From contig NC_081367.1 of assembly GCF_030684315.1 (NCBI RefSeq), positions 42,195,973 through 42,259,852 on the forward strand: DNA of 63,880 nucleotides. The letters run 5' to 3'. Below are positions 9,076-50,891 of this stretch, piece after piece. A program made the translations under genes and the position numbers. Below the pieces are notes generated by a model. It worked only from the letters and a program-made list of their open reading frames with translations. It ran no database searches and had not been told where the DNA came from. Position 1 is the first letter of the stretch. Each line of letters opens with the position of its first letter. Source of the DNA: Stegostoma tigrinum. Its lineage: Eukaryota.

Positions 9076-10359
9076 TATTTTAAGAAATTTCTTCACTCAA
9101 AGAATTGTGTATCTTTCGAATTCTCTATTCCAGTGAGCTGTAGATGCTCCATCATTGAATATATTGAAGGCTGAGATAGACAGAATTCCGGTCCTAAAGA
9201 ATCATGGTGAAAAAGTGGACTTGAGCCAATCATATTGAATGGTGAACAGGTTCAAGAGGTTGTGTCATCAGCTCCTGCCCCTTTTTTTAAATTTGCTTAT
9301 GATTGGCAGTTTTGTATTCTTCTTATCAAATCTTCTACTACCATTGTTTCTCTACAGTTAACCAGCATTAAAAACAAACCAATCCAGTAAAATTAGTCTT
9401 ACTTTTTCAAAGAAATGCAAGTTGTTTTGTTGAACTGTGTGATGTCCTAATTACTTAAGATTCTGTTACATGTGACTTCTGTAATTTGACAACTCAGAAA
9501 TATCTTGAATTAATGCCAATGTAATTTCACTGTGGACTGTTGTTGGAGACAAGAAACTAATAATATGATGTTTTTTAGCAAGTGCTGCAATTATTTGGAA
9601 AGTTTGCCATTTCTTGACAAAGATGAGAGCTGTCATCTAGCTTCTACAATCATCACCACCCTTGGGAAATTATTTCCTCTTGAGTATTGTAATAATAAAG
9701 TCATAAGTCCAACCTTCATAAAATTGTTTATTTATATGTAACTCACTGAGTGCTTTCTTCCCTATGCATTTTCTTTCTGGATTTTAGACGGTATGTTTAA
9801 ATTTATGAAAATACTTTTACCAAGAAATCCTTTCGAATTAAGATTACAGTATTCAGTCGTATAGGAGAAGGGACAGATTTCAGTGCTGTGTGGAAGCCAG
9901 ATGGGTACAATACCTGCTAATTACATTGACACTGAATAGATAATTACAGCTGAATAAAACTGTAATGACAGCACAACTGGTTGAAAACAGTAGCAGCTGA
10001 TTTAAGGCATACAAGAAACCACAGCAGAACAGGAAGAACTAAGCCAATGGACGACCACTTGGGAATATGCTAACCAACCAAGAGCTGAATGTGCACCCAA
10101 TTAACAAATTCATATCCAGAAGGGAATTGTCATTGAGCTATTTCGAAACCTGCATATTCTGTATATAACCATTGAAAATGACCACTCAACAGCTCACAGT
10201 GAAGACAGAAGATACGCATTGTTGACAATGATCCTGTGAATAAAGCAGTCAGATCTTGATCAAACATCACTCTGCCTGATTGATCATCTGAAGAATGATT
10301 GTGTGGTTTAATTGCAACTGTTTTTTTTAAAATTTCAGTAAAGGTGTTGGATTTAATAT

Positions 10360-10492
10360 GAGATAACAAAGTGCGAAGCTGGATGAACACAGCAGGCCAA
10401 GAGAGCACCTGAGGTGCTGCTTGGCCTGATGTGTTCATCCAACTTCACACTTTGTTATCTTGGATTCTCCAGCATCTGCAGTTCCCATTATT
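10360..10492 (+). mobile_element. Palindromic PLE terminal-repeat insertion, family A
   Basis: Inverted arms GATAACAAAGTG..GGATGAACACAGCAGGCCAAG / CTTGGCCTG..CACTTTGTTATC plus a ~30 nt tail. Flanking duplication TTGGATTTAATATGAG at 10347-10362 and 10493-10508. Confidence 0.85.
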
Positions 10493-10989
10493 TTGGATTT
10501 AATATGAGGTTGTGTGAATTGTAATTATTGGTCTCCCAAATTTAAATTAACAGTAAAAATCACTGACAGTACTGAAACATAAAGAAATCAAATTAATAGC
10601 TTGAATTATGGGAATAAACTAATTAATGTAGGAATATTATCTAATAGGTCCAACATCAATTTCAACTATTCCTGCCACTTTTACACTGAATTGTAATCAC
10701 AGAACAGCAAAAAATAGTTCATCTTAGAGGTAACTGTCGAGTACCCCTCAATTTGTGTTGCATTGTGTCACTCATCAATTCCTAATCAAAACAGGATGCA
10801 AAGAATGACTTGCATTTATATAGAACCTTTCACATCCTTTATTTATTACAAAGTGATTCACAACTATCCAGCCAAGAGCAACCAGGAATTAGGCCTAAGC
10901 TTGAAAAAGCTGCTATGTGCCGGACAAGAGTGTTCAGAGGAAAACATGTCCTTCGTCTCTCTTGATTGTAGATCCTGAGCCTCCAAGTA

Positions 10990-11660
10990 TTACATTTATA
11001 CAACACCTTTAACATAATGAACTGTCCTAAGGCACTTCACACACTCATTATAAAATAAAATATGATACTCAAGCACATAAGGGGACATTAGGTCAAATAA
11101 CCAAGAAGCTGATCAAAGATTCTCGTTAAGGAGAATCTCAAAAGAGGAAATTGAGGTGAGAGAGATGAGAAATATAGGGAGAAAATTTCAGACATTGGGG
11201 CCTAAATGATTTATGGCACAACCACTAATCATGGAAATTCAAACTGGAGGCACAAGAGGCCAGAATTAAGAGGACAGACATGTCAGAGAGTTGTGAGGCT
11301 GAAGAGAAAGAGAAAGAGGGAGAGAGAGATTTGACCCTAGAGAGATTTGAAAATCTGGATGAAAATTTTAAAATAAAGACATTGTTGGACTGGTGACCAA
11401 TGTAGATCAGCAAGAATAGGCAAAATAGGCGAATGTGACTTGGTGCAAGTCAAGCAAATTTTGGATGATCTCAAGTATACTGAATTTGGGAGACTCAGCA
11501 GCTGTGATTTGGAATAGTTAATCTAAAGGCAACAAAGACATGAACAGGGGTTTCAGCAGCATGTGAGCTGAGCCAGGATGAAGTCAGGCGGTGTTAATGT
11601 TTGCCAAAGTATGAGATCAAATGTGACACCTGTTCAATCTCAGATTGCTGCTGGGAGAGG
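10990..11660 (-). mobile_element. Degraded L2-like LINE 3' end
   Basis: Recurring motif (CATTTATA..ACCTTTAACATAA..AAGGCACTTCAC..GGAGAGAATT) also seen at ~47780-48360 and ~61380-61710. Confidence 0.45.
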
Positions 11661-12114
11661 GATGAAATTAATAATCACGAGAAGAACCTCAGCACATAGT
11701 TATAATTGGTGTTTGAGCAGCTCGGGTCCACACACAACCTGTTGGGGCCACATACAAAGCAGCCATCAGGATGAAGGTAACATTGGGTGCATATTTTCTC
11801 CCTTTGTATAGAGAACTTTATGTCCCAGTGGACTCAGTCTATGTTTGTTCTTAAGACGCTGCAAAAGTGTTGCAGGTGAGCACTATGGAGCAAGTGCAGA
11901 TTATGAGCCAGACTTGCACCACATAAAGCAACACCAAGACTGCCACACAGCTGATGAGCAGATTCTCAACTGCAATGGAGTGGGACCATCCTTGCCTCAT
12001 ACCCAGTTTCTATTTCACCATGGCTACCCATTCCTTTCAGTTCAGGGGCCTGATCTTCCCACACCAATGCCATCACACTTTCAGTCGAATAAACCTAACA
12101 GTGAGAAGACAAAG

Positions 12115-12246
12115 CTAACAAAGTGTGTAGCTGGATGAACACAGCAGGCCAAGCAGCATCTCCTGAGATGCTGCTTGGCCTGCTGTATTTATCCAGCTAC
12201 ACACTTTGTTATCTTGGATTCTCCAGCATCTGCAGTTCCCATTATC
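12115..12246 (+). mobile_element. Palindromic PLE terminal-repeat insertion, family A
   Basis: Near-perfect ~50 bp inverted arms plus tail. TSD CAGTGAGAAGACAAAG at 12099-12114 and 12246-12261. Confidence 0.88.
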
Positions 12247-13484
12247 AGTGAGAAGACAAAGGATTGTTTAGCCTATTCCCTAAAGAACATGGCCTCACCC
12301 TTGCTATAATTCATTTTAGCTCCCAAAGCTAGTTTGAAGTGGACACAAGTGCCCATCATTTGGAAATCAACATCAGATCTGAGCAGCAGATTTGTACCAT
12401 TTTCCATGTACAATGGTTGGATCCTGCCACAATGTTTTGCAACACTCCAGTTTGTTCAATTGTGCTGTATGCTGTCAGATGATTTCCTGTGTCAAATCAC
12501 AAACTTATTTGGCAGAATGCCTCATCACCAGAACTTTCAAACATGTACCAAGATCAAGTTTGGCTGGTGGTGAACAGAGTCCTCCTTTCGGGTCCTTCCT
12601 GCACTCTCACCCTGCTCTCAAGATGACTATGGTAGGGAACAGACTATTGTCCAACTCCTTTTGGAATGTGTTTTTGCAGAGCGGGTCTGAAAACAAGTCC
12701 AAAGGTTTTTACGAGGTTTATCCCAAACAATTCCAAAACATACAACTCTGTTATTTATGGCTTATTTCTAATGATGCATGCCTCTGTCTCTCTTTTTCTC
12801 TCTATCTCTTTCTCCATCATCCAGGGAGCTCCAGCTTTGACTGCTCCACGTTTCCCTTCAGAGGAATATACTTTGACTCTATTTGAATCATCACTTCTCT
12901 AAAGGCAAACCATTTTGCTGAAAGATTGAATGGAAAAGCCAAAGGTTACAATAGGACATATTGCTGCAACAAATCCCATAGCATTAATTGAATGCACTGT
13001 AAAGAAAGGTCTTGAAACAGCATTACATAAAGCAGGATGAAAAAATTCAAAACTAAGCAAGGGTTCGTTATAAACATCAACTGACAGGATTGAACTCAAC
13101 CCCCATTCTCAACATCTAAGCAGTTTTTGTCCTGAATTCGGAAATATTACCTGCTGATATTTAAAAATAGCTCTGTCAAAGCGAGGTGATTAGCCCATGC
13201 TATGAGCGCATTAACAGTCACATTTTCTAATTTAAAAAAAACATGCTATAAAAATACTTCAATCACAGTGAAGCATTTGAGGTGATCTGCAGCCATGGAA
13301 GACTGTGTAAATGTAAATTATGAAATGTTTAATAGAAACTAATGATAATCATGTAATTAGTAGAATTGTCGGCAACAAAATTAGATATTTTAAGGGTGAA
13401 TTCTCTGAAAAAGAGCAGCTTCATCCATCACATGACCAACATTCTATTTCTGTGAATTATAAGCTGTTTATTTTCATAATCAAC

Positions 13485-14316
13485 ATGGATCTTGATCAGA
13501 TGGGCCAATGGGCCAAGGAGTGGCAGATGGAGTTTAATTTAGATCAATCTGAGGTGCTGCATTTTGGAAAGGCAAATCAGAAGAGGACTTACACACTTAA
13601 TGGTAAGGTTCTGGGGAGCGTTGCTGAACAAACAGACCTTGGAGGGCTTGAAGGTGGAGTTGTGGGTAGATAGGATAGTGAAGAAGGCATTTGGTATGTT
13701 TGCCTTTATTGGTCAGTGCGTTGAGTATAAGAGTTGGGAGGTTATGTTGTGGCAGTGCAGGACATCGGTACAGTCACATTTGAAGTATTGTGTGCTATTC
13801 TGGACTCCCTGCTGTAGAAAGATGTTGTGAAACTAGAAAGGGTTCAGAAAAGATTTACAAGGATGTTGCCAGGGTTGGAGGGTTTGAGTTATAGGAAGAG
13901 GCTGAATATACTGGGGCTATTTTCCCTGGAGCACAAAGGCTGAGTGGTGACCTTATAGAAGTTTATAAAATCATGAGGGTCATGAACAGGGTACATAGGC
14001 AAGATATTTTTCTTAGGGTGGAGGAGTCCAAAACTAGAGGGTATAGGTTTAAGGTCAGAGGGAAAAGATATAAAAGGGACCAAAGGGGCAACATTTTCCA
14101 GCAGAAGGTGGTACATGTTTGGAATGAGCTGCCAGAGGAAACTGTACAATTACAACATTTAAAAGGCATCTGGGCTGGGTATATGAGCAGGAAGGGTTTA
14201 GAGGAATATGTGCCAAATGCTGGCAGATGGGACTAGATTTATACAAGATGTCTGGTCAGCATAGATGCGTTGGACCGAAGGGTCTGTTTCTGTGCTGTAC
14301 CTCTCCATCGCTCTCT
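13485..14316 (+). mobile_element. CR1 LINE 3' fragment (RT C-terminus and 3' UTR)
   Basis: DLDQMGQWAKEWQMEFN..EVLHFGK, HLKYCV.FW.P, ESKTRGYRFKV; frameshifted; CR1-type 3' tail. Confidence 0.92.
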
Positions 14317-14467
14317 GAGTTGAATAGAATTTGAAATGTGGTAATGATTTTAACAGTTCATTTTCTAGTATAACCTCTATTACCAGTTCATGTACTCTAT
14401 TGAAATGTTGTCCTTGATATGCTGAGGGTTTAGATACTTTAAGAAATAAGTATGACTTGATTAGCAT

Positions 14468-14544
14468 CCGAAACGTCAGCTTTCCTGTTCCTAAGATGCT
14501 GCTTGGCCTGCTGTGTTCTTCCAGCTCTACACCTTGTTACCTCA
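14468..14544 (+). mobile_element. Family A PLE end fragment starting within the hammerhead core
   Basis: CCGAAACGTCAGCTTTCCTGTTCCTAAGATGCTGCTTGGCCTGCTGTGTT... Confidence 0.75.
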
Positions 14545-16034: not shown

Positions 16035-16640
16035 AAGATAACAAAGTGTGGAGCTGGATGAACACAGCAGGCCAAGCAGCATCTTAGGAATACAGAAGCT
16101 GGCGTTTCGGGCCTAGACCCTTCATCAGAAAAGGGGGGTGGGGAGAGGATTCTGAAATAAATAGGGAGAGAGGGGGAGGCGGATGGAAGATGGATAGAGG
16201 AGAAGATAGGTGGAGAGGAGAGTATAGGTGGAGAGGTAGGGAGGGGATAGGTCAATCCGGGGGGGGGGGGGGATGAAGGTTAGTAGGTAGGAAATAGAGG
16301 TGCGGCTTGAGGTGGGAGGAGGGGATAGGTGAGAGGAAGAACAGGTTTGGCAGGCTGGAATGAGCTGGGCTGGTTTTGGGATGCAGTGGGGGGAGGGCAG
16401 ATTTTGAAGCTTGTGAAATCCACATTGATACCATTGGGCTGCAGGGTTCCCAAGCAGAATATGAATTGTTGTTCCTGCAACCTTTGGGTGGCGTCATTGT
16501 GGCACTGCAGGAGGCCCAGGATGAACATGTCGTCTGAGGAATGGGAGGGGGAGTTGAAATGGTTCATGACTGGGAGGTGCAGTTGTTTACTGCGAACCGA
16601 GCATAGGTGTTCTGCAAAGCGGTCCCCAAGCCTCTGCTTT
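16035..16640 (-). mobile_element. Penelope-like element 3' end: GIY-YIG C-terminus, pyrimidine tract, hammerhead and family A terminal repeat
   Basis: ORF 16654-16280 reads RLGDRFAEHL..LPVMNHFNSPSHS..ILGL..EQQFIFCLGTLQPNGINVDF, contiguous with the family A repeat. Confidence 0.9.
16098..16128 (-). ncRNA. Minimal hammerhead-ribozyme-like core (family A; cleavage triplet mutated GUC>GCC)
   Basis: CUGAUGA-A-GGGU(CUAG)GCCC-GAAA-CGCC. Helix I is weak. Confidence 0.6.
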
Positions 16641-17473
16641 CTGCTCCCTGTCACTTAGAAAATTTTGTGGCCACATCTCCTTTATTCTATGAGCTCTAAC
16701 TTTGGTCGTAGGTCTGTCACACAACTTAACTGAATGCCTTTTAGAACTTCATGTGCAGCACACCAACAACGTAACCCTTCTGAATACTCATTGTTAACTT
16801 CTCAAGAATACAAGCAAGTTGGTTAAATATGATACACCCTTAAGAAATATGGGATGGCTTTTCTTTTGCATATTGGGCCACATGGCTATTAATTTTGCCC
16901 TGCGCTATAAATTAGTTTGTGTAAAATTGTAAAAGCACTGGTATTTCTGTAAGAGGTACAATATTATAATGAAGATTGCCATCCAAGTAATTCAATGGAG
17001 AGTCAGACTTTGTCTGGAATCTTGCCACTGTTGGGTTGCAACAGAAATAGTCCATTCCAAATCATAATCAACGGCAAAAAATATTGGTTGGTTGGTTGCC
17101 AACAAATTTACACAAAGAATTTGATCAATCATTTTATGCAATAATACATCTGAACAATAAAACTAAGACAATTATAAGTGAGAAAGGGATGAGTAGCAAA
17201 CCAGCCTTTCTGAGTACACCTTCAAGGAATAAATAACTGGCAAGATGTAAGTCGATTATCTATCTGGAGACTGAAAACCAGAGGCGGAATGAAAGTAGAA
17301 TATCCCATCCCTTCGCTACAACGTTTCATAAACGCAATCAGTGTAATAAATCTGAAATCTCCCAAAGACAGATGATGTGATAGTCTAACTAATGATGGTT
17401 ACCTTGTCACTCTAGTTTCTCCGCAGGCAACTCATCACGAATTTGAGGCTGGGGATCAGTGGACAAGATTTCT

Positions 17474-17492
17474 GACTGCAGGTGGCAGCGCA
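17474..17492 (+). promoter_or_regulatory. CTCF-like motif upstream of FAM43A
   Basis: GACTGCAGGTGGCAGCGCA resembles the CTCF core; it sits at the edge of the CpG-rich region. Confidence 0.35.
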
Positions 17493-18081: not shown

Positions 18082-18208
18082 ATGAGCAGTGCAGGAGACC
18101 TGAAGGCAGCCAGTGATCGGAACAGCGAGAGCAAGCCGGCCAGGACACCGTGAGCAATGGACAATGATCGGGACTGGCGCTGATTACCCGATCGTCCCCA
18201 GATTTTAA
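18082..18208 (+). other. Three upstream ORFs in the putative FAM43A 5' leader (18082-18153, 18157-18183, 18164-18208)
   Basis: ATG-to-stop frames read directly; they depend on the TSS lying upstream of 18082. Confidence 0.55.
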
Positions 18209-18233
18209 CAACCCAAATCTCCCAATACCAGCG

Positions 18234-19301
18234 ATGTTACCTTGGAAGAAAAACAAATTGGATTTGGTCGAGAAGCGGCAGCCGAAACAGCTCGGTTACT
18301 CGGTGAGTTTGAACTACAGCAGCCTGACTTCCTTCACCCGTGCGTGTCCGGACCTGGTGACGGAGAGCGCTCTCAATCGAGTCTGCAGCATGTTTAAATC
18401 CCGGAGGAGGAAGATCACCATCACTGGGGAAGATCCCACCTATACAGTCTTATACCTCGGCAATGCCACCACCATCCAGTCCAAAGGGGAAGGCTGCGCC
18501 GATGTGGCCGTGACCAAAATCTGGTCCAAAAGTGAACAGGGTAAAAACAGCACCAAGATGAAGCTGACCATCAGCTCTCAAGGAATCCGCATGGTCCATG
18601 TAGACAGCAAGGCGAAGAGACCGGGCCATCTCTACCTTTTGCATCGGATCACCTACTGCGTGGCGGACCCCAGATCGCCCAGAATCTTCGCCTGGATCTA
18701 CCGGCACGAACTGAAGCATAAGGCGGTCATGTTGAGATGCCATGCCGTGCTGGTCTCCAAAGCCGAGAAGGCGAAGGCGATGGCCCTGCTCCTGTACCAG
18801 ACCTCCAGTAACGCCCTGGCCGAGTTTAAGAGACTCAAGAGGAGGGACGATGCCAGGCACCAGCAGCAGAAACTGATCGGCGAGCAGACCATCCCCCTGG
18901 TGCCCCTCAGGAAGCTGATGAACGGCCAGTGCAGCTACAAGCCCCCGGTGGAAAGGAGCCGGAGTGCCCCGAAGCTGGGCTCCATCACTGAGGACCTGGT
19001 GGGAGAGCAGCTGGAAGAGAAAGCTGAACTGGAGCTGAGTCTGGAGTACGAGGACATTCTGGACACTGCGGAAGCGTCGGAAAGAAACGAGCAACAGGAC
19101 CTTTGTGAAATGATCAGTGATCTGGGGCAGCTGACTATAGGGAATGACGTCCAGTTACTGAGAGCTGACCTGAGAGTGACCAGGTTACTGTCTGGGGAAA
19201 GTACTAGCAGCGAGTCATCCCTGGGAAGTGGGGCGAGTGATCAAGAGCCAGTGATGGCAACGGATGGCAGTGAAGACGGCGACCTGCAAGAATTGGGATA
19301 A
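18234..19301 (+). CDS. FAM43A: Protein FAM43A (PTB/PID-domain protein), single coding exon, 355 aa
   Basis: MLPWKK.., EDPTYTVLYLGNATTIQ, RHELKHKAVMLRCHAVLVSK, ALAEFKRLKRRDDARHQQQ and KPPVERSRSAPKLGSITEDL match FAM43A. Adjacency to LSG1 favours A over FAM43B. Confidence 0.96.
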   Translation: MLPWKKNKLDLVEKRQPKQLGYSVSLNYSSLTSFTRACPDLVTESALNRVCSMFKSRRRKITITGEDPTYTVLYLGNATTIQSKGEGCADVAVTKIWSKSEQGKNSTKMKLTISSQGIRMVHVDSKAKRPGHLYLLHRITYCVADPRSPRIFAWIYRHELKHKAVMLRCHAVLVSKAEKAKAMALLLYQTSSNALAEFKRLKRRDDARHQQQKLIGEQTIPLVPLRKLMNGQCSYKPPVERSRSAPKLGSITEDLVGEQLEEKAELELSLEYEDILDTAEASERNEQQDLCEMISDLGQLTIGNDVQLLRADLRVTRLLSGESTSSESSLGSGASDQEPVMATDGSEDGDLQELG

Positions 19302-32300: not shown

Positions 32301-32403
32301 GCTGGTGTGGGAGGTGATGACTCCAGGTGAGACCCTTTATTCTTATGTTGAACTTTTATTTATGCTCTCTCAAGTCTGTAAAACACGTACTTATGTATCC
32401 TGT

Positions 32404-32540
32404 AAAACCAAAAGAACTGCGGATGCTGTCAATCAGGAACAAAAACATAGTTGCTGGAAAAGCTCAGCAGGTCTGGCAGCATCTGTGGAGGAGAAAACAG
32501 AGTTAACATTTCGGGTCCAGTGACCCTTCCTCAGAACTGA
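32404..32540 (-). mobile_element. PLE terminal repeat, family B
   Basis: Same sequence as the arms at 55600-56030. Weaker copies at ~43465-43560 and ~57890-58000. Confidence 0.8.
32501..32538 (-). ncRNA. Minimal type I hammerhead ribozyme candidate (family B)
   Basis: AGUU-CUGAGGA-A-GGGUC(ACUG)GACCC-GAAA-UGUU-AACU: helix I AGUU/AACU, 5-bp helix II, GUU triplet. Confidence 0.7.
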
Positions 32541-34990: not shown

Positions 34991-35401
34991 AAGAACAGCC
35001 TTGATAATTGAGTATGTTAAAATAACTCACCTTCAGTAATGAAGATCAAATGAAAATTTAAGACCTCAACCATAAAGTAAGACTTCATCAAAGTATGTCC
35101 TGAAAGATCATTCAGAAGGTATATATGGTCCTCAGTGGCTCTATGTCTCCTAAAACAAAAGTCTTGCTGTTGCTGCCAAATTTGCCTTATTCTCCACTGC
35201 TGTTTTGGCCAATCTTTTAGCAGAGTCCTCACTGAATCCAATACCCATCCTCTCGAGAATTATTTGTATTGAATACAATTTTTAAAATCTGCTTTAGTTT
35301 AATGTATCTTTAACAATTCATGCATTTCTACTATACCATTGAGTAACCATTATGGGTCCAGTTAAGAGTCTTGACTCCATTCAATACATTGATGATGATT
35401 A

Positions 35402-37678
35402 GAGCCATAGAGTCATACACCACAGAAACAGCCCCTTCGGGCCAACTTGTCCACGCTAATCAGGTTTCCTAAACTGAACTAGCCCCATTTTCCTGTATTC
35501 AGCTCATATTGCTTCAAATCTTTCCTGTCCATGTACCTGTCCAAATATCTTTTAAATGTTGTAATTGTATCCACCTTCACCACTTGCTCCATACATGCAT
35601 CACGCTCTGTGTGAAAAAAGCTGCACCTCAGGTGCTTTTCAAATATTTCCCCACTCACCTTAAACATATGGCCTCTAGTTTTGGACTCCCCTACCCGAGG
35701 GAAAGACCTTGGTTATTCACCTTATCTATACACATCATAATTTTATAAACTTTGATAAGGTCACCCCTCAACCTGCTATGCTCCAAGGAAAAAAGTCCCA
35801 GGCTATTTAGCCTCTCCTTTCAACTCAAACCTTGCAGTCTCAGTAACATTATTGCAAATATTTATTGCACTAGTTTAATTACTACAGCAGGGTAACCAGA
35901 ACCTACATGGTACTCGAAATGTGGCCTTCCCAATGTTTTGTACAGCAGTGATGTGATGTCGCAACTCCTCTACTCAATGCTGTGACCAATGAAGGCAAGT
36001 GTGCCAAATGCCTTCTTCAACACCCTATCTACCTGCGACTCCACTTTCAAGGAACTATGACACTTTGGTTGGCAACACTCTTCAAGGCCCTACCATTAAC
36101 TATATAAGTTCTGCCCTGGTTTGCCTAACCAAAATGCAACACCTCACATTATTCTAAATTAAACTCCATAGAACATAGAACATAGAACAGTACAGCACAG
36201 AACAGGCCCTTCAGCCCACAATGTTGTGCCGACCATTGATCCTCATGTATGCACCCTCAAATTTCTGTGACCATATGCATGTCCAGCAGTCTCTTAAGTG
36301 ACCCCAATGACCTTGCTTCCACAACTGCTGCTGGCAACGCATTCCATGCTCTCACAACTCTCTGCGTAAAGAACCTGCCTCTGACATCCCCTCTATACTT
36401 TCCACCAACCAGCTTAAAACTATGACCCCTCGTGCTAGCCATTTCTGCCCTGGGAAATAGTCTCTGGCTATCAACTCTATCTATGCCTCTCATTATCTTG
36501 TATACCTCAATTAGGTCACCTCTCCTCCTCCTTTTCTCCAATGAAAAGAGACCGAGCTCAGTCAACCTCTCTTCATAAGATAAGCCCTCCAGTCCAGGCA
36601 GCATCCTGGTAAACCTCCTCTGAACCCTCTCCAAAGCATCCACATCTTTCCTATAATAGGGCGCCCAGAACTGGACGCAGTATTCCAAGTGCGGTCTAAC
36701 CAAAGTTTTATAGAGCTGCAACAAGATCTCACGACTCTTAAACTCAATCCCCCTGTTAATGAAAGCCAAAACACCATATGCTTTCTTAACAACCCTGTCC
36801 ACTTGGGTGGCCATTTTAAGGGATCTATGTATCTGCACACCAAGATCCCTCTGTTCCTCCACGCTGCCAAGAATCCTATCCTTAATCCTGTACTCAGCTT
36901 TCAAATTCGACCTTCCAAAATGCATCATCTGCCACTCTTTGGCCTGTTGTCCCACCTGATCAAGTTCCCCTTGTACTCTGAGGTAACCTCGTTCATTGTC
37001 CACTACACCACCTATTCTGGCATCATCTGCAAAATTACTAAGCATGCCTCCTATATTCACATCCAGATCATTTACACAAATGATGAAAAGCAATGAGCTC
37101 AGCATCAATCCTTATTGCACACTGCTGGTCACAGGCCTCCAGTCCGAAAAGCAACCCTTTACCACAAGCCTCTTGTCTCCTACCTTCAAGCCAATTTTGA
37201 ATCAATTTGGCTAGCTCCTTCTGGATCCCATGTGATCTAATCTTATTAAACATTCCACTGCAGAACCTTATCAAAGCCTTGCTAAATTCCATGCAGACAA
37301 TGTCTACTGCTTTGCCTTCATCTAGCTTTTTGGTCACCTCTTCAAAAACTCAATCAAAAACATTTGTGAGACATGATTTCCCATACACAAAGCTATCCCT
37401 AATCAGTCCTTGCCTTTCCAAATAGATGTAGATCCCATTTCTCAGAAACCTCTTCAAGAATTTACCCACCACTGAAAGCAAGCTTACTGATCTGTAGTTT
37501 CCTGGCTTTTCTTTGCAATTTTTCTTAAATAATGGCACAACATTAACCACCCTCCAGTCTTCCGGCATCTCACCCATGACTACCGATGGTACAAGTATCT
37601 CTGCTGGGGCCTCGCAATTTCCTTCCTACCTTTGCATGATGTCCTGGGAAACATTTGATCAGGGTCAGGGAAATTATC
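35402..37678 (-). mobile_element. CR1 LINE (host copy) running into the gap
   Basis: PEDWRVVNVVPLFKK..PGNYR.VSL, DEGKAVDIV.MEFSKA, LSNFADDARIGG; 3' tail at ~35402-35460. Confidence 0.92.
36170..36925 (-). mobile_element. Younger 5'-truncated CR1 nested in the host CR1
   Basis: Uninterrupted RT C-terminus (LVRPHLEYCVQFWAP..LERVQRRFTRMLPG) and a (CATAGAA)3 tail. It splits the host sequence AAACTCCAT|CTGCCAC. Confidence 0.9.
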
Positions 37679-40051: not shown

Positions 40052-41797
40052 TTCAAATAAATCTGTTGAACTATAACCTGGTGTTGTGTGATTTCTGACC
40101 ATGTCCACCCAGTCCAACACCAGCACCTCCACATCATTTGTAAATTTGTAGCCAGATTGCGGGCTGGCAGGCAGGCAGCAGGAAGGACACTTGCAGAATT
40201 TTACAGGGTTCCCTCAACCTAAAATTCCACAGGCGAGTAACCATGACATTTTGACAATAGTTCCATAAAAACCTGGATCAGGGAACGTTCAAATTTTGTT
40301 ACCTCCAATGTTCAAACTCTGGAGCTGCTCTTCATAATGCAAATAATTTTGTTGTGGAATGATTGTTTTCCTTTGTTCTCAATTTTTCCCAATCCTTTTT
40401 TTTTAGAGGGAGGAGCTAAAGCCTTTTCTCCAGCGTAATGTCATCTGAGGGTGCAGTAAGAATTTGCTATTCTGTAGACTACTGTTATGGTTGGAAGTAG
40501 AAAGTAGCATTCCTGTTATCTTCTGTGAAGATATTATAGAAGGAGAGTGAAGTGATCGGATGATATCATCTTATAGAATCTCTGCCAATTCTGTCACTCG
40601 TACTCCAAAGCCACTCACACATAAATAAAGCCAGGACTGAGATCAGAATCTCATCCTTGCAGACATGCCAGTGATTTTCTTTTAAGAAACCAGTTATCCA
40701 AAGACAACTGATCACAGAGCAATCAATTGACATTGGGGAACAAAGGTTAGAAAATGCTTTGAGTGCTTTGAAGAACTTTGGTTTAAGCAGCTTTTCCACT
40801 TAACTGCTGCAGTGATAACCCTCACTGTGACAGATACATGTATTGCATCAAGTGAAAAAGTATGGACAGCTGCCAAAACCATGCCGGTGATCCTGACTCT
40901 GGGATTATCTGAGGAGACAGCAATCAAGGAAGTATGGGGAACAAGATTCTGGAAAGTTATGTGGGAGGAAAGATTCACGTATTCACATTCCATATGGGGC
41001 TTGCATGACCATTCCTGCTGAACCAGGTCCTACAAAGAAGCGGAGAAACAAATTTCTGTTTTTGCTTCTTTGCCATTCCAGTGTATTGATGGGAAAGCTT
41101 GAGTTAAAGTTCTAATCAGGCCAGAAATTATGGTGCCCACAGACCCAAATTTACATATTGAAAGGACTCACGGACTTTGGACAAACGTTCAAGCTGTAAA
41201 TTTGCAATTGGCAGGATCCGGATTGCTCAAGGACAGGAAAGTAACATAAACAATTGAAACTACTCACCTCCTGAGTTTCCCCTGAATGGATAGGGTTAAA
41301 ATTACCACCATCTCCCACCACCCCTGCAATCCACAAGCCAAAGCTAATCAGGGTCTGGTAGATACAGAAAAGAGAAAGGAAGGAAGGAATGATGAAAGAC
41401 AACTGGCATGCCAATCATGAAAGATAATTGGCTGAAAAACCTCCAAACTGGTATGATCAACCAAGTGGTGCAATGATATTAATAGAGAAAACAGTAAAAG
41501 CCTCACACAAGAAAAAAGATAAGGGTAGTACCATTATTCTCACTACACATACAGTAATTAATTATCAATTGCTTTCCTCCTCCCTTTATTCTTCACTTTG
41601 ATTTGACTTAATGTAGTCACATGTACCTAAGAACAGTGAAAAGCTTTGTTTTGTGAGCAGTACAAGCAGATCACAGCATGCAAGGATGTACAGATCATAA
41701 GGTGCTTAGACACAGCAAGACAATACAAGGTTATGGCTGCACAGGAGGTGCACAAAGCAAGTTCAACATGAGCAAGATCAAAATTATTTGAAGTTGG

Positions 41798-42001
41798 AGA
41801 TAGTAGGTACTGTCGATGCTGGAGTCTGAGATAACAAGGTGTAGAGCTGGATGAACACAGCAGGCCAGGCAGCATCAGAGGAGCAAGAAAGTTGACATTT
41901 TGGGTCTGGACCCTTCTTTAGACGAAGGGTCCAGACTCAAAACATCGTGTTTCCTGCTCCTCTGACACAGCCTGGCCTGCTGTGTTCATCCAGCTCTACA
42001 C
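41798..42001 (-). mobile_element. Palindromic PLE terminal-repeat insertion, family A variant, inside another retroposon tail (~41605-42085)
   Basis: Inverted arms meet at two decayed head-to-head hammerheads (GACCCTTC-TTAGAC-GAAGGGTC). Degenerate TSD ATTATTTGAAGTTGGA/ATTATTAAAGTTAGA. Confidence 0.8.
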
Positions 42002-42084
42002 ATTATTAAAGTTAGAGAGGTTCATTCAGCAGCCTTAAACGGCTGGGAAGAAGCTGTTCTTGAGCCTGTTGCTGTATGTGTTCA

Positions 42085-42397
42085 GATGGGGAATTTCAAG
42101 ACTAGGGGCCACATTTTTAAGGTGAGAGTAGAGAGATTTCAAAAAAGACATGAGGCAAAGTTTTTATACAGCGGGTGGTTTCCATGTGGAATGAACTTCC
42201 TGATGAAGTGGTGGATATGGGTACAATTACAACTTTAAAAGACATTTGGATGGATATATGAATGGGCAAGGTTTGGAGGGATATGGGCCAGGAGCAGACA
42301 GGTGGGACGAGTTTAGTTTCGGATGATGTTCGGCATGGACTGGTTAGACCAAAGAGTCTTTTACTGTGCTGTATCACTCTGCAACTCTATGACTCTA
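42085..42397 (+). mobile_element. CR1 3' end
   Basis: AGACTAGGGGCCAC..TGGAATGAACTTCC..CTCTATGACTCTA tail. Confidence 0.85.
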
Positions 42398-43879
42398 AGC
42401 AGAAGCTCTTGGGAGTTCAACAATAAATAATACTCCTTTGTAGTCAGGCTTCTTGAGCTATTATACCAGCCCAAGGGAAAAGAACTTCCCTTTCCTCTTA
42501 CATAGCCTTCAGGAGAATCTCACAGCAGGCATTGCAAAATGTAGACCCCACTTTCTGCTTGGTATCTGACAATTCCAGTGTGATTGTGACTGATTGGCAG
42601 AGGTTGACTGGTGTTCCTGGGTTGCAAAAGATTAAATGCAACCTGCAATCCTTTCAAATAAAGTGCCAGGAAGCAGAGACCCTGATGGTTCTATTGTGGG
42701 TCACAAGTGGGGCAGATTCTCCTGTCTGCTGGCACATAAAATTTGATGTTTTATCTGTGTGTGCATATGTAATGAATTATGAAGAAAATAATCATGAGAA
42801 AACCCGACTGAATGTCAAGCAGAAGTACTTCCTGCTTTTTGGGCAACATCCATGTTTAGTCTCCAAAAGAGATTCTGCCCATTCTTTCAGTCAACTGAGA
42901 ACAGCTAACACCACCATTAGAAAGGTCAAGAGAAAAATAGAAAGGCCAGACATGTACAGCAATGAAAGAGCTCTAAAAATACTTCAGTTCAATGATGTTA
43001 TTGAATGAAGCAAATCATTGCATTCCAGTGTAATTCATTGGCCACATCATGTTTTTATTGTTGCATGCAACCTTAGGCATCCATGAAAGGAAATCCCTGC
43101 AGCAAATTCTGGAAAGTAGTCTTGATGTTGATCTGATGGCAAGTTAATGAGGCCCTGGAGTTAAAATTTCTACTGTAATTAATGTGCTTCCAACTCACTA
43201 ACCCAATCAAGAGCCCCCAAACCATCCAAATTTACACTTAAACTATTAATCCATCTTTTCTCTTTACAAATGTTGACCCGTATTTTCCGTAATGAATTTA
43301 ATCATAAGTGCTACATACAATGAATATTCTAAAGATAAGTACAGAATCCACTTCATGGTATTGCTACCAAGCTTAACATGGGCCATTTTAGTGATACCTC
43401 TTTGCAAACAACGCTCCAACATCAAACATATCCCACTGGCAGTTGCCAGTCCCTACATAGGTAATCTAAAACAGAAACAGAAATTGCTGGAAAAAATTAG
43501 CAGGTCTGGCAATATGCATAGAAAGAAAGCACAGTCAACATTTTGGGTCCAGTGACCCTTATTTCAACACTATTTATGCAATTACAGCCCTCAACCAGAT
43601 ATGCAAGTCAAATCAATTTCCTTATCAGTGAACCTTGCAGATCCATTCTAGCTACATGCAAGTTAGTGACATTTATTTTTATGACTTACGTTGATGTCAT
43701 GAAAAAATGTAGTGTAAGCTTGTAGAGGACTACTGGGAATTACCAGCCCATATCATCCAGCATAGGGAACAATGGATCAGCAGTTTCACTGGACCCTCCA
43801 TCTCTGTCAGGACCCAAGTGCTCCTAGGGATTCAAATGATCCTCCCAGCAGACTGAATTCCAAAAGAAAACTAAAGGAC

Positions 43880-45430
43880 TCTGAAAGACACCCTTGTGCA
43901 GGCCCATCAAGCATCAAGTGAAACCTCTTTGGATGTCATGGCAACAAACACCTTCATGATATCATTTGTTTATAGAGACCCATACTGAAACTGAAAAGGC
44001 AGGTCCCTATTACATCAAAGACTTTGAGCTATTGTGCCACTCCCTCATGCAAAACACAGCTGTGCCACCTGTGAAATAACGTTGCTTCTGTAGTTCATTG
44101 CGTATCATCAACTGTAATCTGAGACACTATTCGGTTCAGCAGTTTCCATATTGTAAACATGTAGAAATCTCCACGTTTCGGCTGGAAACAGAAAATTTTG
44201 TTAAAAATGTCCCAACCAGCCACCTACGAGGAAGACTTCTCCAGTCATCATACTAATTATGATCACTCAGTGCCAGATAGAAATGGTGAAGAGGTTCTCG
44301 GTTTGGCCTTAAGGAGTATCTTCACTCAAACACATGTCTCCAAACAATAGGGGCATTACCATTCAGCCCACGGTGTTGGAAATACTCAACTTATCCATGC
44401 TCCCTTGTTGGCCACCCTCACCTGATACAATTCTTAGTCCTGGAAGACATCTCATATTATCAACATAGGCCATCATTTATTCACATTGCCCTTTATCTTC
44501 CAGTCATCAACAGTCAAGGAAGATGTGATAGAACTCCCTTAAGGCCTGACAATGCAGCCAGGTGAACATGCAGTAAGACAATAGACTGTATTATTGTAAT
44601 TATATCTATCTATAATATTCCTGTGGAAGAATTTATAGATGCTTTTATGGTGCCATCCACACAGTTGTCACCCATGGTTACCAACCCGCCTCTATCCATG
44701 CCTTCATAGACAGAGTGCAGCATTTCTCAAGAAATATAAATCATCTAGTGACCCTGATACAGAAAACCATCTCATCCAGACTATTCAGTCTGCTTTCAAC
44801 CTGGCTCGGGAATTTTTCTTTGAAACATTCCCTCACAGTTGACACTTGGATAAGGGAGAAGTGCATGAAAAAGACTGACCAGAAGACTACCTCAGGACTC
44901 AGTGCTCACCCAATGCTGTTCAACAAGCATACAAATGACTAACCAACAACCATAATCTCACACGTTTACCTGTGCATCAGTTGTGCCACCCAAGCTCCAT
45001 CCTTCTGCACGCAAGATCTGAGCCTTGCCAAAGACTTTGCAAAATTATCAGATTACTGCACCACATGAGATCACAAACTGAATTACTCTAAAACCATTTC
45101 AGAGATAATAGGAACCGCAGATGCTGGAGAATCTGAGATAACAAGGTGCAGAGCTTGATGAACAAAGCAGGCCAAGCAGCATCACGGGGGCAGGAAGGCT
45201 GACTTTTTGGGCCTAGATCCTTCTTCAGAAATTCTTGTTATGTCTTTACTCTAAAACCACATTTTGTCTCCACAATGCCAGTGCCAAAAAGAATTGCACA
45301 TCTCCATAGATGGCCAGAGGCTAAAATATGATTCCAACCCAACATACTTGGGCGTGGCTCTTCCTTTCAGGGACATCTGAAGCAAATAGCAGCAAATTAG
45401 ATTAATAATTCATTCAGCACAACCACTGTG
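43880..45430 (+). mobile_element. Degraded Ingi/Vingi-like LINE (APE and RT remnants)
   Basis: Collinear remnants ETH..F.L..HAKH (~43975), QHRPSFI (44461), PQ.SVL.PMLFN (~44890) and NPTYLGV (~45337). Confidence 0.55.
45101..45245 (-). mobile_element. Family A PLE end with short inverted remnant
   Basis: Tail, arm and decayed hammerhead, then CTTGTTAT. TSD TTACTCTAAAACCA at 45083-45096 and 45246-45259. Confidence 0.8.
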
Positions 45431-45785
45431 GCATTTCTTGGCAATATTGTACATTTGGGAGAGAATCTGAGGAAACAGGGATGCTGGGATTACCAAGCAC
45501 TGCAAAAGATGGGGCTACTGAAGTACAGCTGCACTGTAATCTTAAAGTGATCTCAGCACTACACTGTTTCACAAGTTTACTTAGCAAAAAAAATGCCAAT
45601 ATTCAGTGGAGGGAGGTGAACAAAGAGGAAGGCTTAGGAAATACCAAATAAGTGATATGCAGTCATTTCCAAGTTCTTCCAATCACACAAAAGATTTTTT
45701 ATCAGTTCACTCTCAGGGGAATTCAACGGATTCACTTTTCATTGCTGCATCTCATCCTGATGATCAGACTCATTGTGCTTGTCTC

Positions 45786-45989
45786 GGAGATAATAGGAAC
45801 TGCAGATGCTGGAGAATCTAAGATAACAAAGTGTGGAGCTGGATGAACACAGCAGGCCAAGCAGCATCTCAGGAGCACAAAAGCTGACGTTTTGGGCCTA
45901 GACCCTTCATCAGAGAGCCTGAACCGTCAGCTTTTGTGCTCCTGAGATGCTGCTTGGCCTGCTGTGTTCATCCAGCTCCACACTTTGTA
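45786..45989 (-). mobile_element. Palindromic PLE terminal-repeat insertion, family A
   Basis: Near-perfect ~65 bp inverted arms; hammerhead CTGATGAAGGGTCTAGGCCCAAAACGTC (minus, 45883-45913). TSD CATTGTGCTTG(T/C)CTC at 45771-45785 and 45990-46004. Confidence 0.9.
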
Positions 45990-46171
45990 CATTGTGCTTG
46001 CCTCCTTTCTTTTCTGTCTCCTGCTAGTGCCCCATTTCCTTCCTGGAGTATCTGTTTGTTCCTCTGTCTTGTTTTAAAGCTGTCCCACGATTAAACAAGT
46101 ATGCCAAACATTCTCTATCCTAACTGCTGCCCCAATAAACCTGTTGTGGCGATCTTCAGCTGATTTTCGTT

Positions 46172-46470
46172 CATAGAGCCCCTGTAGTGCGGAAACACGC
46201 CCTTTGGACCAACAAATCCACACTGAACGTCAGAGCATCCCACCCAGACCCCATCCCCCTATAACCCACCTAATCTACAAATCCCTGAACACTATGGGCA
46301 ATTTGGCATGGCCAAGCCACCTACCCCACACATTTTTGGGCTGTGGAAGGAAACCAGAGCACTCAGAGAGAATGTGCAAACCCCACACAGACAGTTGCCC
46401 GAGAGTAGAATCAAACCTGGGTCCCTGCTGCTGTGAGGCAGCAGTGCTAACCATTGAGCTACCATGCTGC
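46172..46470 (-). mobile_element. tRNA-derived SINE (HE1/V-SINE-like)
   Basis: Diverged copy of 53336-53655; A/B boxes on minus. Confidence 0.8.
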
Positions 46471-46884
46471 TCTAGAACTCACATCCTTGCCTTCAAGTTC
46501 TGTCATTACACAACATTCCTTTATCACAAGAAGCTGGATATGTAAACACAACAAAGCCAACACCAAGCTCAATGGCTCTTGAGATAATGATGATAATGAG
46601 CCACCATTTTGATAACAATTTATTTGCTTTCTAGACCAATTCAGAGGGCAACTAAGAGACTGTAAACCTTGGGCCACATAATGGTGGAGATCACGAATGG
46701 GACATTTTCTTCCATAAATAACATTAGTGAACCAGATAATATGTAAAATTACAAACAAGAAGTTTCACAATCCCCATTTCTGCTGCTAGAATTCCATTCC
46801 AGATGTATTTAATTTATATTCAAGTGGCCATCATGGCTCCAGATTAATCTAGGCCTTTAAATTACTAAACCACTAACGCAGTGC

Positions 46885-47225
46885 TGGAGAGGCGATGGCC
46901 TAGTGGTATTATTGCTGGACTGTTAATTCAGAGACACAGGTTCAAATTCTACCACACAGAAGATGAAATCTTAATTCAACCAAAAAACAAAATCTGGAAT
47001 TAAGAGTCTAATGGTAACCATGAATCCATTGTCAATTGTTGGGAAAATCCATCTGGCTCACTAATGTCCTTTAGGGGAGGAAACTCTCATCCTTACCTGG
47101 TCTGGCCTATATGTAACTCCAGATCCACAGCAATGTGATTGACTCCTAGCTATTCTCTGGGCAATTAGGGATGGGTAATAAATGCTGGCCTGGCCACTGA
47201 TGCCCACATCCCGTGAATTAATAAC
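46885..47225 (+). mobile_element. DeuSINE-like SINE (SacSINE1-like)
   Basis: tRNA-like head TGGCCTAGTGG..GGTTCAAATTC, central CTGGCTCACTAATGTCCTTTAGGGGAGGAAA, and a LINE-derived tail. Confidence 0.7.
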
Positions 47226-48371
47226 TAAAACAAAACCGCTGTGCTATCACTCATAACCAGACAATAGAGCAAGTAACAGATTTTTATTTTTAGAACTCTC
47301 CTGCTTCTGTTGCTAACTAAATTGAAACACATGTTCATTGTGACAACCCTTAAAAGAGCAATGCAAATGCAAATCCTATTTGTCAACAAAGCCTAGTAAA
47401 ACGATAAAAACAAATTCACATTTGTGTTTCAAATGATTAGGAGATTTTTCAATGTTTTGGAATTTTAAATCAATTAATGAGCAAAATGATACTCATTCAA
47501 AAGATATTCTCATTACAAAATGACTTCTTTTGCGGCAGCCATGTCAGGCCAAGATTGTTTCATGTTGTAATCTCATGGTATATTTTTACTAGTTGTAATG
47601 GTAATTCAAATTCTCATTCTTTTGAGTATTTAATATGCATGAGTTTCTATTCTTAGCTGCAGTTTTCTCCTGCTAAAGTATGATACTTGAATTATTAGAG
47701 GCTCCAGGGTCATAAAGTATTGTGGAAAATGTAAAACCTATCTTCAAATCTTAGAGATCACCTCCAATTTTATGATTTCAACAACTTGTATTTCTATAGT
47801 GTTATTAACATAAGGCAATTGATAAGAATTTTACCAAACAAAATCTGACTCCAAGCCATATAAGGTAATAATAGGCAACACCCACTTCCTCCAAAATCAA
47901 CACTCAGGAACAGCAGTGTGTGTTACTATATACAAGGCGTACTGCAGAAATTTACCAAAGATCCTTAGTCAGGACTTTCCAAAGCACAATCACTTCCATC
48001 TGGCAGAACAAGGGTAACAGATAAGTTGCCCTCCAAGCCACTCACCATCCTGATTTGGAAATATATCACTATTCTTTCACTGCCGCTTAATCAAAATTCT
48101 GAATTTCATCCCTAAAGACATTGTGAGCAGATCACCACCACCTTCTCAGGGGCAACTAGGGGCGGGTAAGAAATGCTGGCCCAGCCAGCAACTCCCAAGT
48201 CCCGTAAGTGAATGAAAAAATTGATCAAGAAGCTGATAATGAAGGTAAGTTTTTAGGAGTGCTTTACGGGAGGAAAGAGAGGTAAAGATGCAAGGGGTTT
48301 ACTGGCAGATCCTAGACCCTGTGATCTTAGCAGCTGAAATCACGGCTGGCAATGGTAAATGAAACTGTGAG

Positions 48372-48581
48372 AGGTAAAGTCACCATAATCTTACCGGACC
48401 TTGGCTGCTCCCTCACTAGAGAGAGAGAGTCAGCCGATGGTAATTTAACTTGAGGGTCCCCCCCTCTCAGAGAGATTGAGAAGGAATGTGCTTCATGGTA
48501 ACCTCAGCCAGTACTGGAATTGAACCCATGCTATTGGTATCATTCCATTTCACAAACCTGCCATCCAGCCAACTTAGCTAA
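48372..48581 (-). mobile_element. tRNA-derived SINE, third family
   Basis: Minus strand TAGCTAAGTTGG (A box) .. GGGTTCAATTCC (B box). Confidence 0.6.
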
Positions 48582-48954
48582 CAGTAACATAAATGAGGTT
48601 TGTGTGTGTAACAAAGCCTAGCAAAGCTACAAAGATGACTATATGTGCAATGATAAAAATGATACAGAAACCTTTCGATGTTTTAGCATTTTAGAATCAG
48701 TTATTAATTTATATGCTAACTATTCTAAGAAACGTTTCCACTGGGTCTTGTTACAATATGGTTTCTATTGTGGCAGCCATGACAGATAGGTTGTCTTAAC
48801 GTGTAATTTTCATGATATCCGGCAGGTGAAATGTTTAGAAGCAATGTGAAGGGAATGGAGACTGAAGAAATTGGGGTCATCCTTCCCATTATTTACTTGA
48901 AGGAAACATTTGCCTATCCACTACCAGATATCAGACAAACAGTCTGATAATTTC

Positions 48955-49083
48955 CAGAGATAGCAAGGTGTAGAGCTGGATGAACACAGTGGGCAAAGCA
49001 GCATCAGAGGAGCAGGAAGGCTGACGTTTTGGGCCGAGAGCCCTGTTATCTCAGATTCTCCAGCATCTGCAGTTCCAACTATC
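48955..49083 (+). mobile_element. Family A PLE insertion with asymmetric inversion
   Basis: Inverted arm joined to TGTTATCTC plus tail. TSD TCTGATAATTTC at 48943-48954 and 49084-49095. Confidence 0.8.
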
Positions 49084-50891
49084 TCTGATAATTTCGAGAC
49101 ACTGATGGAGCAGAAAGAGGCAGTAGTTAGATAAATTTGAGTTGTATCACTGTACATGTAGAATCTTATGCCATGCTTTTAGATGATGCAACTGAGGGCA
49201 GCCTATAAGAAAGAAATGGAAGGGAGTCAAGGCTAAATCCTGGGCAATACAAGAGATAAAGGACAGGAGCAGGAGGATGGGTAATAAATATAAATGAAAT
49301 ACTAGTATTTTATTGGAATATTTTACTGTTCAATATAAATTTACCATGGCCAAGATTTTTCCTATCGCCATTTGGTAGAAGCTGCTAGACCATGGTGTAG
49401 GCATGTGTGCGTAATGGGATCTGTCAAAATAAAATGAACAACTTTGATTCCACTGGCTTTCTACTGTGTTCCAATCCTGACTTCCTATCTGAATGTCATC
49501 AGGACCCTGTGTGCGACTTTTTCCTGAAGCCTGAGGAGGTTAGTGGGCAGTTACAATGTCATGAAAACCTGGCCTGCCCCCAATCCCTGCCCAGTGCCTT
49601 CTCTCCTCACTCGCTGACAGCAAGGCAAAAATGCATCGAAGTAAAACCAAGGAAAAGTCATTGGAAAGTTCCACATTAACCTCACTGCAATGATTTGTGG
49701 AACAAAGCCAAAAGTATGATCCTAGTCTCATATTGAGCCCCTTTTTCTGGAAGCCTGCGCACAGCCCTGGCATTGACCTGGCATTTCTAGTCATGGAAAA
49801 ACCCGCACCAGATACACAAATTCTGTCTGAATGACACCCAAAGGACGGATCACTTCTTCCTGTGCAGGATATTCATTGTATGGTAACACTGTTTATGAGT
49901 CTGTCTTGTGTTGACCTCAGATTAGCTGGGAGTGCAAAACAAAATCTGCCTGCTTACATGCAGAACAACTACGTCTGCTGAATATTAGAAGTCTGACTGA
50001 GCGCAGGAGCTGGAGAGTGAGGGGGCCTGGAGCATATTGGGAAGGCTGGGACTGGGCCAGGAAGATTAGGGGAGCAGTGGGATTTGCCCGCCACACACTG
50101 CTGCTCTGGCATTTTGGCAGCATCAGGCAATGTGGCAGGCAGCCCACCTATCCTGAGGCCAATCAAAGCTTTTGTGACCAATTCAATGCCCCCTTAAAGA
50201 TATCTTTACACTGTTATTGGTGTTTTATCAGATGTACTCTGGTGGACCTTTCCCTGGGCTTGTGGGATGCGTTTTTGTAGCTCATGCTGGGTCCCCACAG
50301 TGGGAAGTGACATCTTGTGGAAACATCCCACTGCTCCCGACAAGCATTCCCACCCCCCAACCCTTGCCTGATTAGCCCCTGTGAGCCTGGGTGCACTTAC
50401 TCGGCTTCTGGGGCCTCTGCCATTGCTGCTGGTATTCCTTCAATTGGCCAGCAGCTCTTGAAAGTATGACTTCAATCCCTCAAAGGAAAGGTAGCCTTGA
50501 TGGCACACAGTTAATTGCCTGCTGCAAGTAAGATTGTGTTGAGGTGGACCTGACTGCCAGCCCCTCTTTCATGAGCATGTCTGTTTCTGGCAGTCCATGG
50601 AGGAGGGGGCACTTGGTGTCCGCTGTTATCTTCGGAGCATGTGCTAACTGATGGACACCATCGGGGTCTGCAGAGCATCATCACCCCAGGTTATGGTAGT
50701 TTAATTTAAATTTGTTACCTTTCTGTTGAAGTTTTGTTTTGTGTTCCCCATCCCTTTAAGGGGCTGTCACATGTTTATTCACCGGTTAACTGAATCAGTT
50801 TGTTTTCACGGACCTCCTATAACCAGCTGAGATGAAGGTACCCTCAAATTTCCCAGCCAGTGAATCAGGAGGGCCCATGCCGTGAAGTCCC

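Follow-up and report, generated by a model that had tools for sequence, protein, structure and literature searches.

Two-armed insertions of family A

The window analysed here, a stretch of 63,880 nt from Stegostoma tigrinum (NCBI RefSeq assembly GCF_030684315.1, contig NC_081367.1, positions 42,195,973 to 42,259,852 of the forward strand), contains six short insertions of one repeat family, designated family A, which, judged by homology, are the 5'-truncated 3' ends of a Penelope-like element (PLE). An initial annotation had described them as one-tailed, two-armed insertions, and all six were located where it had placed them. In each unit both element 3' ends point outward, with the second arm in opposite orientation, and one tail of about 34 nt is present. 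Arm positions are given in a numbering R that starts at the outer tail end of unit 45786 (R1 = window position 45786) and counts inward into the element, with the tail covering R1 to about R35. On the element sense strand, the outer end and the base of this tail (45787-45820, minus strand) both end in TTATCT. The tail-less arm stops at R35-41, in the GATAACAA region, in all six units, units 10360, 12115 and 48955 have the tail on the right, units 41798, 45101 and 45786 have it on the left, and the inversion centre differs in every unit.

Unit 10360 (10363-10492, 130 nt; 10347-10508 including target-site duplications, TSDs) consists of a left tail-less arm, R36 to about R84, and a right tail-bearing arm, about R86 to R5, enclosed by an exact 16-nt TSD (10347-10362 and 10493-10508). 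Unit 12115 (12115-12245, 131 nt; 12099-12261 with TSDs) combines R36-85 with R90-4 through 3 nt of microhomology at the joint and has an exact TSD of 16 nt as well (12099-12114 and 12246-12261). Unit 45786 (45786-45989, 204 nt; 45771-46004 with TSDs), which belongs to a young subfamily, carries arms of R1 to about R130 and about R107 to R41, and its TSD (45771-45785 and 45990-46004) is exact over 11 nt, or 15 nt with one mismatch. Units 41798, 45101 and 48955 are of older subfamily type. Here, unit 45101 (45097-45245, 149 nt; 45083-45259 with TSDs) has a tail-bearing arm reaching to about R132 and a tail-less arm of only about 11 nt (45234-45245), with an exact 14-nt TSD (45083-45096 and 45246-45259). 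In unit 48955 (48955-49083, 129 nt; 48943-49095 with TSDs), the long arm is the tail-less one, R36 to about R120, and the tail-bearing arm extends only to about R46, with an exact TSD of 12 nt (48943-48954 and 49084-49095). Unit 41798 (about 41797-42008, approximately 211 nt; 41791-42018 with its TSD candidate) comprises arms R2-129 and R126-39 and is flanked by a weak candidate repeat (41791-41800 and 42009-42018).

The TSDs of 12-16 bp that had been proposed for all units are thus confirmed, as exact repeats of 11-16 nt, for five of the six. The candidate of unit 41798, 10 nt with one mismatch and exact over 5-6 nt, is at chance level. Among random position pairs, an exact repeat of at least 10 nt was reached in 1 of 2000 and 0 of 1000 cases.

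Relationship to Penelope-like elements

The PLE origin suggested by the initial annotation is borne out by endonuclease homology, by the presence of both reverse transcriptase (RT) and GIY-YIG in the relative P0001, and by P0002, which runs into the arm sequence. Window positions 16352-16678 match P0001 with 81% identity over 109 aa (tblastn, E 6e-49), and the protein encoded at 16035-16640 shares 81-87% identity with proteins predicted in whale shark and zebra shark. Profile matches of P0001 comprise GIY-YIG (E 8.6e-5) and RVT_1 (E 9.3e-5, under the curated cut-off), and P0002 continues into a unit arm with 15 of 17 residues at 45872-45922. A Pfam search of the window's own endonuclease fragment gave no match. 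P0001 further carries a CX2-5CxxC linker, a motif assigned to Neptune and Nematis (PMC8557442); the window fragment begins downstream of such motifs. By this motif, the shark relatives hence appear to be Neptune/Nematis-type, and either of the two clades would fit.

The endonuclease fragment lies in a one-armed copy at 16035-16640 (minus strand), which comprises the C-terminal part of the PLE GIY-YIG endonuclease and the 3' region with a hammerhead motif. This copy had been taken for the visible parent of the units. Because it lacks a tail, a TSD and an RT, it has to be regarded as a 5'-truncated sibling and not as their source; it holds the endonuclease end only, and no family A RT was found within the window. 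Two further one-armed, tail-less copies of family A are located at 14468-14544 (plus strand, R110-36) and 50889-50974 (minus strand, R36-118), both without TSD.

A hammerhead-type motif is present at about R100-128 on the element sense strand, featuring an extra base after position 9, a G-C closing pair in helix II and a palindromic helix III. The minimal motif at 45885-45913 (minus strand) has a damaged core and a predicted cut at R101/R100 (45886/45885), and further hammerhead-type motifs at 16100-16128 and 45200-45228 display core changes in each copy; an Rfam search of the window returned no hammerhead match. Minimal hammerheads in the pseudo-long terminal repeats (pLTRs) of such elements, together with motif criteria, have been described (PMC4209133), and the motif of family A would, by its predicted form, represent a minimal hammerhead in a pLTR as in endonuclease-positive (EN+) PLEs. 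Known EN+ PLEs display an inverted truncated copy, a one-sided tail of 30-40 bp and a TSD (PMC3846280; PMC8557442). RT plus GIY-YIG in the family, the inverted 5'-truncated copy with one-sided tail and the TSD are all found here.

Two other PLE families occur in the window. Family B is represented by a two-armed unit (55599-56030, or 55592-56044 with its 8-nt exact flanking repeat) with arms of 189 nt and the tail on the right at about 55992-56030, and by one-armed copies at 32404-32540 and 43470-43560. A one-armed copy of family C lies at 60535 to about 60660. The tails of families B and C are related to that of family A, with a 15-nt tail core common to A and B, and both termini of family B are T-rich, echoing the TTATCT of both family A termini. 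A stem of 8 bp between tail and arm (45841-45848 with 45802-45809, minus strand) is predicted in families A and B and would enclose the inner start site. Its 8 core pairs are all kept, or nearly so, in five sequences from both families; single-sequence folds are at shuffle level (z = 0.16, -0.41, -0.31) with negligible covariation, and the stem was not used as evidence. Pattern scans for family copies in viral contigs, metagenome contigs and prokaryote genomes yielded 0 loci.

Empty site in a related species

Public WGS-like contig sets were compared with window positions 44700-46160, which cover two of the six units (45101 and 45786). Runs X1 and X2 derive from the window's own organism (A; two samples of one study) and runs X5 and X8 from a relative (B; two studies), with 173324, 185063, 46935 and 45111 contigs placed in X1, X2, X5 and X8, respectively. 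In X1 and X2, contigs agree with 45205-45811 and 45962-46160 at every position, and therefore the centre of unit 45101 and the junctions of unit 45786 are not assembly artefacts. In relative B, one contig per run joins 45779 directly to 46015 with zero letters in between. Since 45780-45785 is identical to 46015-46020, the 15-nt target word occurs just once in relative B, and the 204-nt unit is missing. The site of unit 45786 thus keeps one flanking repeat and not both, as expected for an insertion accompanied by a TSD, and it does so in two runs from two studies. The 16 nt at 45999-46014, within or beside the right TSD of this unit, are present in A and missing from B, an unexplained separate indel.

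Contigs of relative B that start from the left flank of unit 45101 reach 45120 and 45115, i.e., 19-24 nt into the unit, which is below the 31-letter bridging rule. Because they extend into it, this older unit is probably common to A and B. The letters of the 45786 subfamily at R84 and R93 account for more than 90% by depth in A and for 5-7% in B, which fits a burst after the A/B split.

Centres and joints across the genome

Across the runs, 1354 joints were obtained, and the figures given in the following refer to the best 15 of these; counts for X1 and X2 are incomplete and hence have to be read as at least the number given. Head-to-head centres make up 13 of the best 15, each with up to 7 contigs per run, and microhomology of 1-4 nt is present at 10 of these 13, a proportion favoured by the depth-based selection. 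One of the centres, whose two sides are separated by 8 tail-like letters, may belong to another joint type. The deepest centres reach about 1280 in X1 and 2270 in X2, compared with single-copy depths of about 8 and 23, corresponding to approximately 155 and 100 single-copy equivalents. The summed family depth is 2.0e7 (X1) and 3.6e7 (X2); divided by 31 for overlapping words, this gives very roughly 5e4-8e4 arms or more, depth being no copy number. The top centre hence amounts to about 0.2% or less of the rough family size.

Such numbers bear on whether the units are MITEs (transposable elements of the miniature inverted-repeat type) or similar non-autonomous subfamilies, in which a small number of palindromic masters, each of a single origin, were propagated as fixed units. 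The units resemble MITEs in being short, non-coding and abundant, and some centres do recur (1-7 contigs each, depth about 300-2270 versus 8-23 for single copies), among them that of unit 12115 (joint 45867>45939, 3 contigs each in X1 and X2) and an off-diagonal one without microhomology. Centres thus all differ among the six units of the window, and not among all copies of the genome. With none of the 13 centres exceeding about 0.2%, a fixed MITE is nonetheless unlikely, and neither a uniform length and structure or fixed centre nor symmetric terminal inverted repeats with a fixed short TSD were found. In addition, six centres in six units, the 1354 joints, ends made asymmetric by the single tail, TSD lengths of 11-16 nt and one-armed siblings of the same sequence make an origin of this kind very improbable. 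Accordingly, the initial suggestion that the centres arose de novo is supported, and limited re-amplification of particular units alongside microhomology-driven recurrence is possible.

Loose ends with A-rich flanks accumulate at two termini, R2 (window 45787; 863 in X1 and 839 in X2) and R35-39 (window 45820-45824), the latter being highest at R36 (2559 in X1 and 2624 in X2). The R36 ends include tail-bearing copies of diverged subfamilies, visible as a tail-like consensus in X5. A tail/no-tail ratio calculated from loose ends was rejected, as this diverged tail subfamily mixes into the R36 ends, and so was the reading of the tail-base consensus as a jump from the outer site, since the same subfamily accounts for the consensus.

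The joint with best support in all four runs is of tail-to-tail type and connects the end of a tail with an arm of opposite orientation that begins at the tail base (45787 with 45821, opposite strands; 57, 62, 21 and 22 contigs), and a variant at R39 (45787 with 45824) is found in 24, 27, 9 and 12 contigs; no tail-to-tail joint occurs within the window. Over 4 nt, one end of the tail is complementary to the other. A tail-to-tail form is expected from self-priming on sense RNA (PMC3846280), and self-priming, tandem units or insertion into an older tail are all compatible with these joints. Another joint, 45868>45821-45822, is a direct partial tandem in which one arm ends at R83 and a fresh start follows at the tail base, which suggests re-initiation from a truncated cDNA.

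Compound insertions of this sort evidently happen, and the PLE endonuclease can cut its own termini (PMC11167929), so that the two arms might in principle go back to two separate insertions at one site or to later rearrangement of longer copies. Here, one TSD pair surrounds both arms, the empty site contains neither of them, the arms share private variants, and they are always arranged head-to-head with one tail. Hence, we regard an origin from compound events as extremely unlikely.

A probable two-primer origin of the inverted arms

Instead, two-primer target-primed reverse transcription probably generated each unit at its site of insertion. In this mechanism, the element endonuclease would cut both strands of the target, with 10-16 nt between the nicks. 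cDNA synthesis would then start from one 3'-OH at the tail's outer end and from the other 34 nt further upstream, at the tail base, most likely with a single RNA molecule as template for both. The two cDNAs would be extended in the direction of the RNA 5' end and terminate prematurely, and 0-4 nt of microhomology would serve to join them head-to-head; fill-in would yield a TSD-flanked palindrome with one tail. Priming from one end only would give a one-armed copy, joined by repair and lacking a TSD. This order of events, the one shared RNA and the participation of a protein dimer are what we infer from the products.

Several features of the copies agree with this mechanism. One tail is present in all seven two-armed units of the window (p = 0.008 versus independent site choice), and an exact flanking repeat of at least 8 nt is found in 6 of the 7 two-armed copies and in none of the 6 one-armed ones (Fisher p = 0.005). 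All three one-armed copies of family A end at the tail base, which therefore constitutes a separate priming site. The lengths of the two arms vary independently, with 132/46 in unit 45101 and 46/120 in unit 48955. Variants private within the window and shared by both arms were detected at 2, 1, 3 and 0 sites, i.e., in three of the four long palindromes (2 in unit 10360 and 3 in unit 41798), pointing to a presumably single template. An Anolis PLE protein was reported to cleave and extend both target strands in vitro, with two RT start sites bounding the tail and a predicted dimer (PMC11167929). By analogy, the loose-end peaks at R2 and R35-39 match these two start sites.

The published reading of head-to-head palindromes is a different one, namely fold-back or self-priming, in which a tail-primed cDNA (or antisense RNA; PMC3846280) copies itself back to the tail base, with that end then connected to the opposite side of the target. 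It is in line with the short microhomologies at the centres, with the private variants common to both arms, and with the near-symmetric position of the centre in 5 of 7 window units and in 12 of the 13 centres. Yet, unit 48955 and a joint present in X1 and X2, whose tail arm extends to R39 and whose other arm extends to R76, have a tail-less arm with sequence missing from the tail arm. The stop at the tail base would need a separate explanation, this site being an RT start in vitro and the end of one-armed copies, and the TSD goes with two-armed copies. Further evidence comes from joint 45881>45929, a zero-loop perfect palindrome in which both arms end at R100 via a self-complementary 4-mer. 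It was found in 7 contigs in X1, the most of any centre there, in 4 contigs in X2 and in none of relative B. Since a single strand cannot prime by folding back there, this centre tells against fold-back. Additionally, the proposed self-priming from antisense RNA (PMC3846280) is not easily reconciled with the two-site, both-strand extension observed in vitro in 2024. Overall, fold-back appears unlikely, though clearly less so than MITE-like copying.

Some observations weigh against two-primer synthesis. The near-symmetry mentioned above, with an offset of about 22 nt or less, needs an added assumption, either a single 5' end of the RNA or a trailing RT that catches up with the leading one. Private variants common to both arms are equally in line with fold-back or later gene conversion; in the lopsided units 45101 and 48955, which are old, the bulk of one arm may have disappeared after insertion, and later deletion can produce zero-loop palindromes. 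The Anolis study reported that the strands do not differ in start site (PMC11167929), and strict one-tail asymmetry is thus not seen in vitro. Furthermore, unit 41798 lacks a significant TSD, the numbers of copies are low (7 and 6), the threshold of 8 nt and the one-armed ends were chosen post hoc, and the statements on centres rest on the best 15 of 1354 joints with incomplete X1 and X2 counts.

A stricter version of two-primer synthesis can be put forward only tentatively and has somewhat less than even chances in our judgement. PLE integration would then be obligately asymmetric twin priming on one RNA, with two RT active sites positioned on the ends of the tail, one nick each, and the same RNA copied twice. 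In a subset of events, both cDNAs would run off the hammerhead-cleaved 5' end and anneal via their self-complementary first four bases, giving the palindrome at R97-100. If true, this would explain the one-sided tail, the inverted pLTR, the variants shared by the arms and the retention of a TSD in two-armed copies only, and the R97-100 palindrome, present in 7 contigs of X1 and 4 of X2, would be genomic evidence for cleaved RNA as in vivo template. The R100 end of joint 45881>45929 coincides with the predicted hammerhead cut, and the other self-complementary 4-mers of the arm, at R52-55, R70-73, R102-105 and R110-113, are not among the best 15 of 1354 joints. Hammerhead cleavage was reported to be dispensable in vitro, with no RNA ends found at the hammerhead cut (PMC11167929).

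Hairpin potential

The units had been described as hairpin-forming, which is true for four of them. Units 10360 and 12115 fold far better than shuffled sequences (z = -9.7 and -15.5), and units 41798 and 45786 contain inverted arms of 85 and 72 nt, respectively, as determined by arm comparison and not by folding. Units 45101 and 48955, in contrast, fold no better than shuffles (z = -0.87 and -0.83), because their arms overlap by only about 11 nt; in unit 48955, the tail arm enters the shared region by just this length and the opposite arm reaches R120. A role as source of double-stranded RNA hairpins cannot apply to these two of six units. For the remaining four, a function as source of hairpin RNA or endogenous small interfering RNAs (siRNAs) would be a matter of folding potential only. 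An Rfam search of the palindromes gave only sub-threshold microRNA-type matches (41798 unit and family B unit). Palindromes of this kind are easily taken for MITEs or microRNA precursors during annotation. In Drosophila, siRNAs from inverted Penelope copies have already been described (PMC3681739).

Comparison with known systems

That the units record the PLE priming mechanism, as the initial annotation had put it, is a fair reading, but the layout and two-site priming, like siRNAs from inverted copies, have already been published, and the pattern itself is not new. EN+ PLE insertions share the head-to-head copy, the tail at one end, the TSD and the palindromic junction, and TSD-less copies joined via microhomology have been described there as well (PMC3846280; PMC8557442). 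Unlike these, the shark units comprise only 130-210 nt of terminus without open reading frame, the family is very abundant, and TSDs are 11-16 nt long as compared to 8-10 nt in the Adineta examples. The Poseidon element PAc of Anolis is alike in its two start sites bounding the tail downstream of the hammerhead, in the cutting and extension of both strands and in its AT-rich targets (PMC11167929). The CX2-5CxxC linker of Neptune/Nematis, which Penelope/Poseidon lack, is present in the shark relatives. The accessible text of PMC11167929 proposes no account of the inverted arm or the one-sided tails, and the origin of inverted and tail structures in PLEs has been called still undefined (PMC8557442). 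A literature search, which covered few subscription papers, brought up neither a report of PLE stumps in sharks nor a two-primer model that would account for the inverted arm.

With a very large number of minute, complete and TSD-bounded products, the PLE mechanism becomes a matter of counting tail classes, arm lengths, loop sizes and TSD versus arm number. About 1e5 such stumps in shark genomes would allow asymmetric priming to be judged by counting. In L1 twin priming, both target ends prime as well, resulting in an inverted 5' part within one TSD pair and a microhomology joint; there, second priming occurs at a variable site, and the stretches of RNA copied into the two cDNAs do not overlap. 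In the shark units, on the contrary, the second site is fixed and the cDNAs overlap, giving palindromes. Non-LTR retrozymes, finally, are likewise short, abundant and non-coding and derive from PLE pLTRs with hammerheads (bioRxiv 10.64898/2026.07.22.740005). The shark units differ from them in that they do not form tandem direct hammerhead repeats, two of the six end short of the hammerhead and unit 48955 has part of it only. No tandem array of hammerhead monomers was found within the window, and short partial-tandem joints occur elsewhere in the genome.

Other features of the window

An intact frame of 377 aa at 18168-19298 (plus strand) contains a PTB/PID_2 domain (E 3.6e-73) and is presumably a FAM43-type host gene. 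Positions 1 to about 6000 are occupied by a long G-rich tandem array (GT and G-runs) with variable units of 9-20 nt. LINE-like RT fragments and two copies of an approximately 300-nt SINE-like repeat, labelled by resemblance, are distributed over 13527-14314, 35401-37111, 42089-42380, 46174-46463 and 53347-53647. A 54-nt unit is repeated four times in tandem within an open frame (32085-32302), immediately upstream of family B copy 32404-32540. Lastly, an imperfect palindrome of 128 nt (81%) without clear TSD at 60167-60294 is unrelated to family A.

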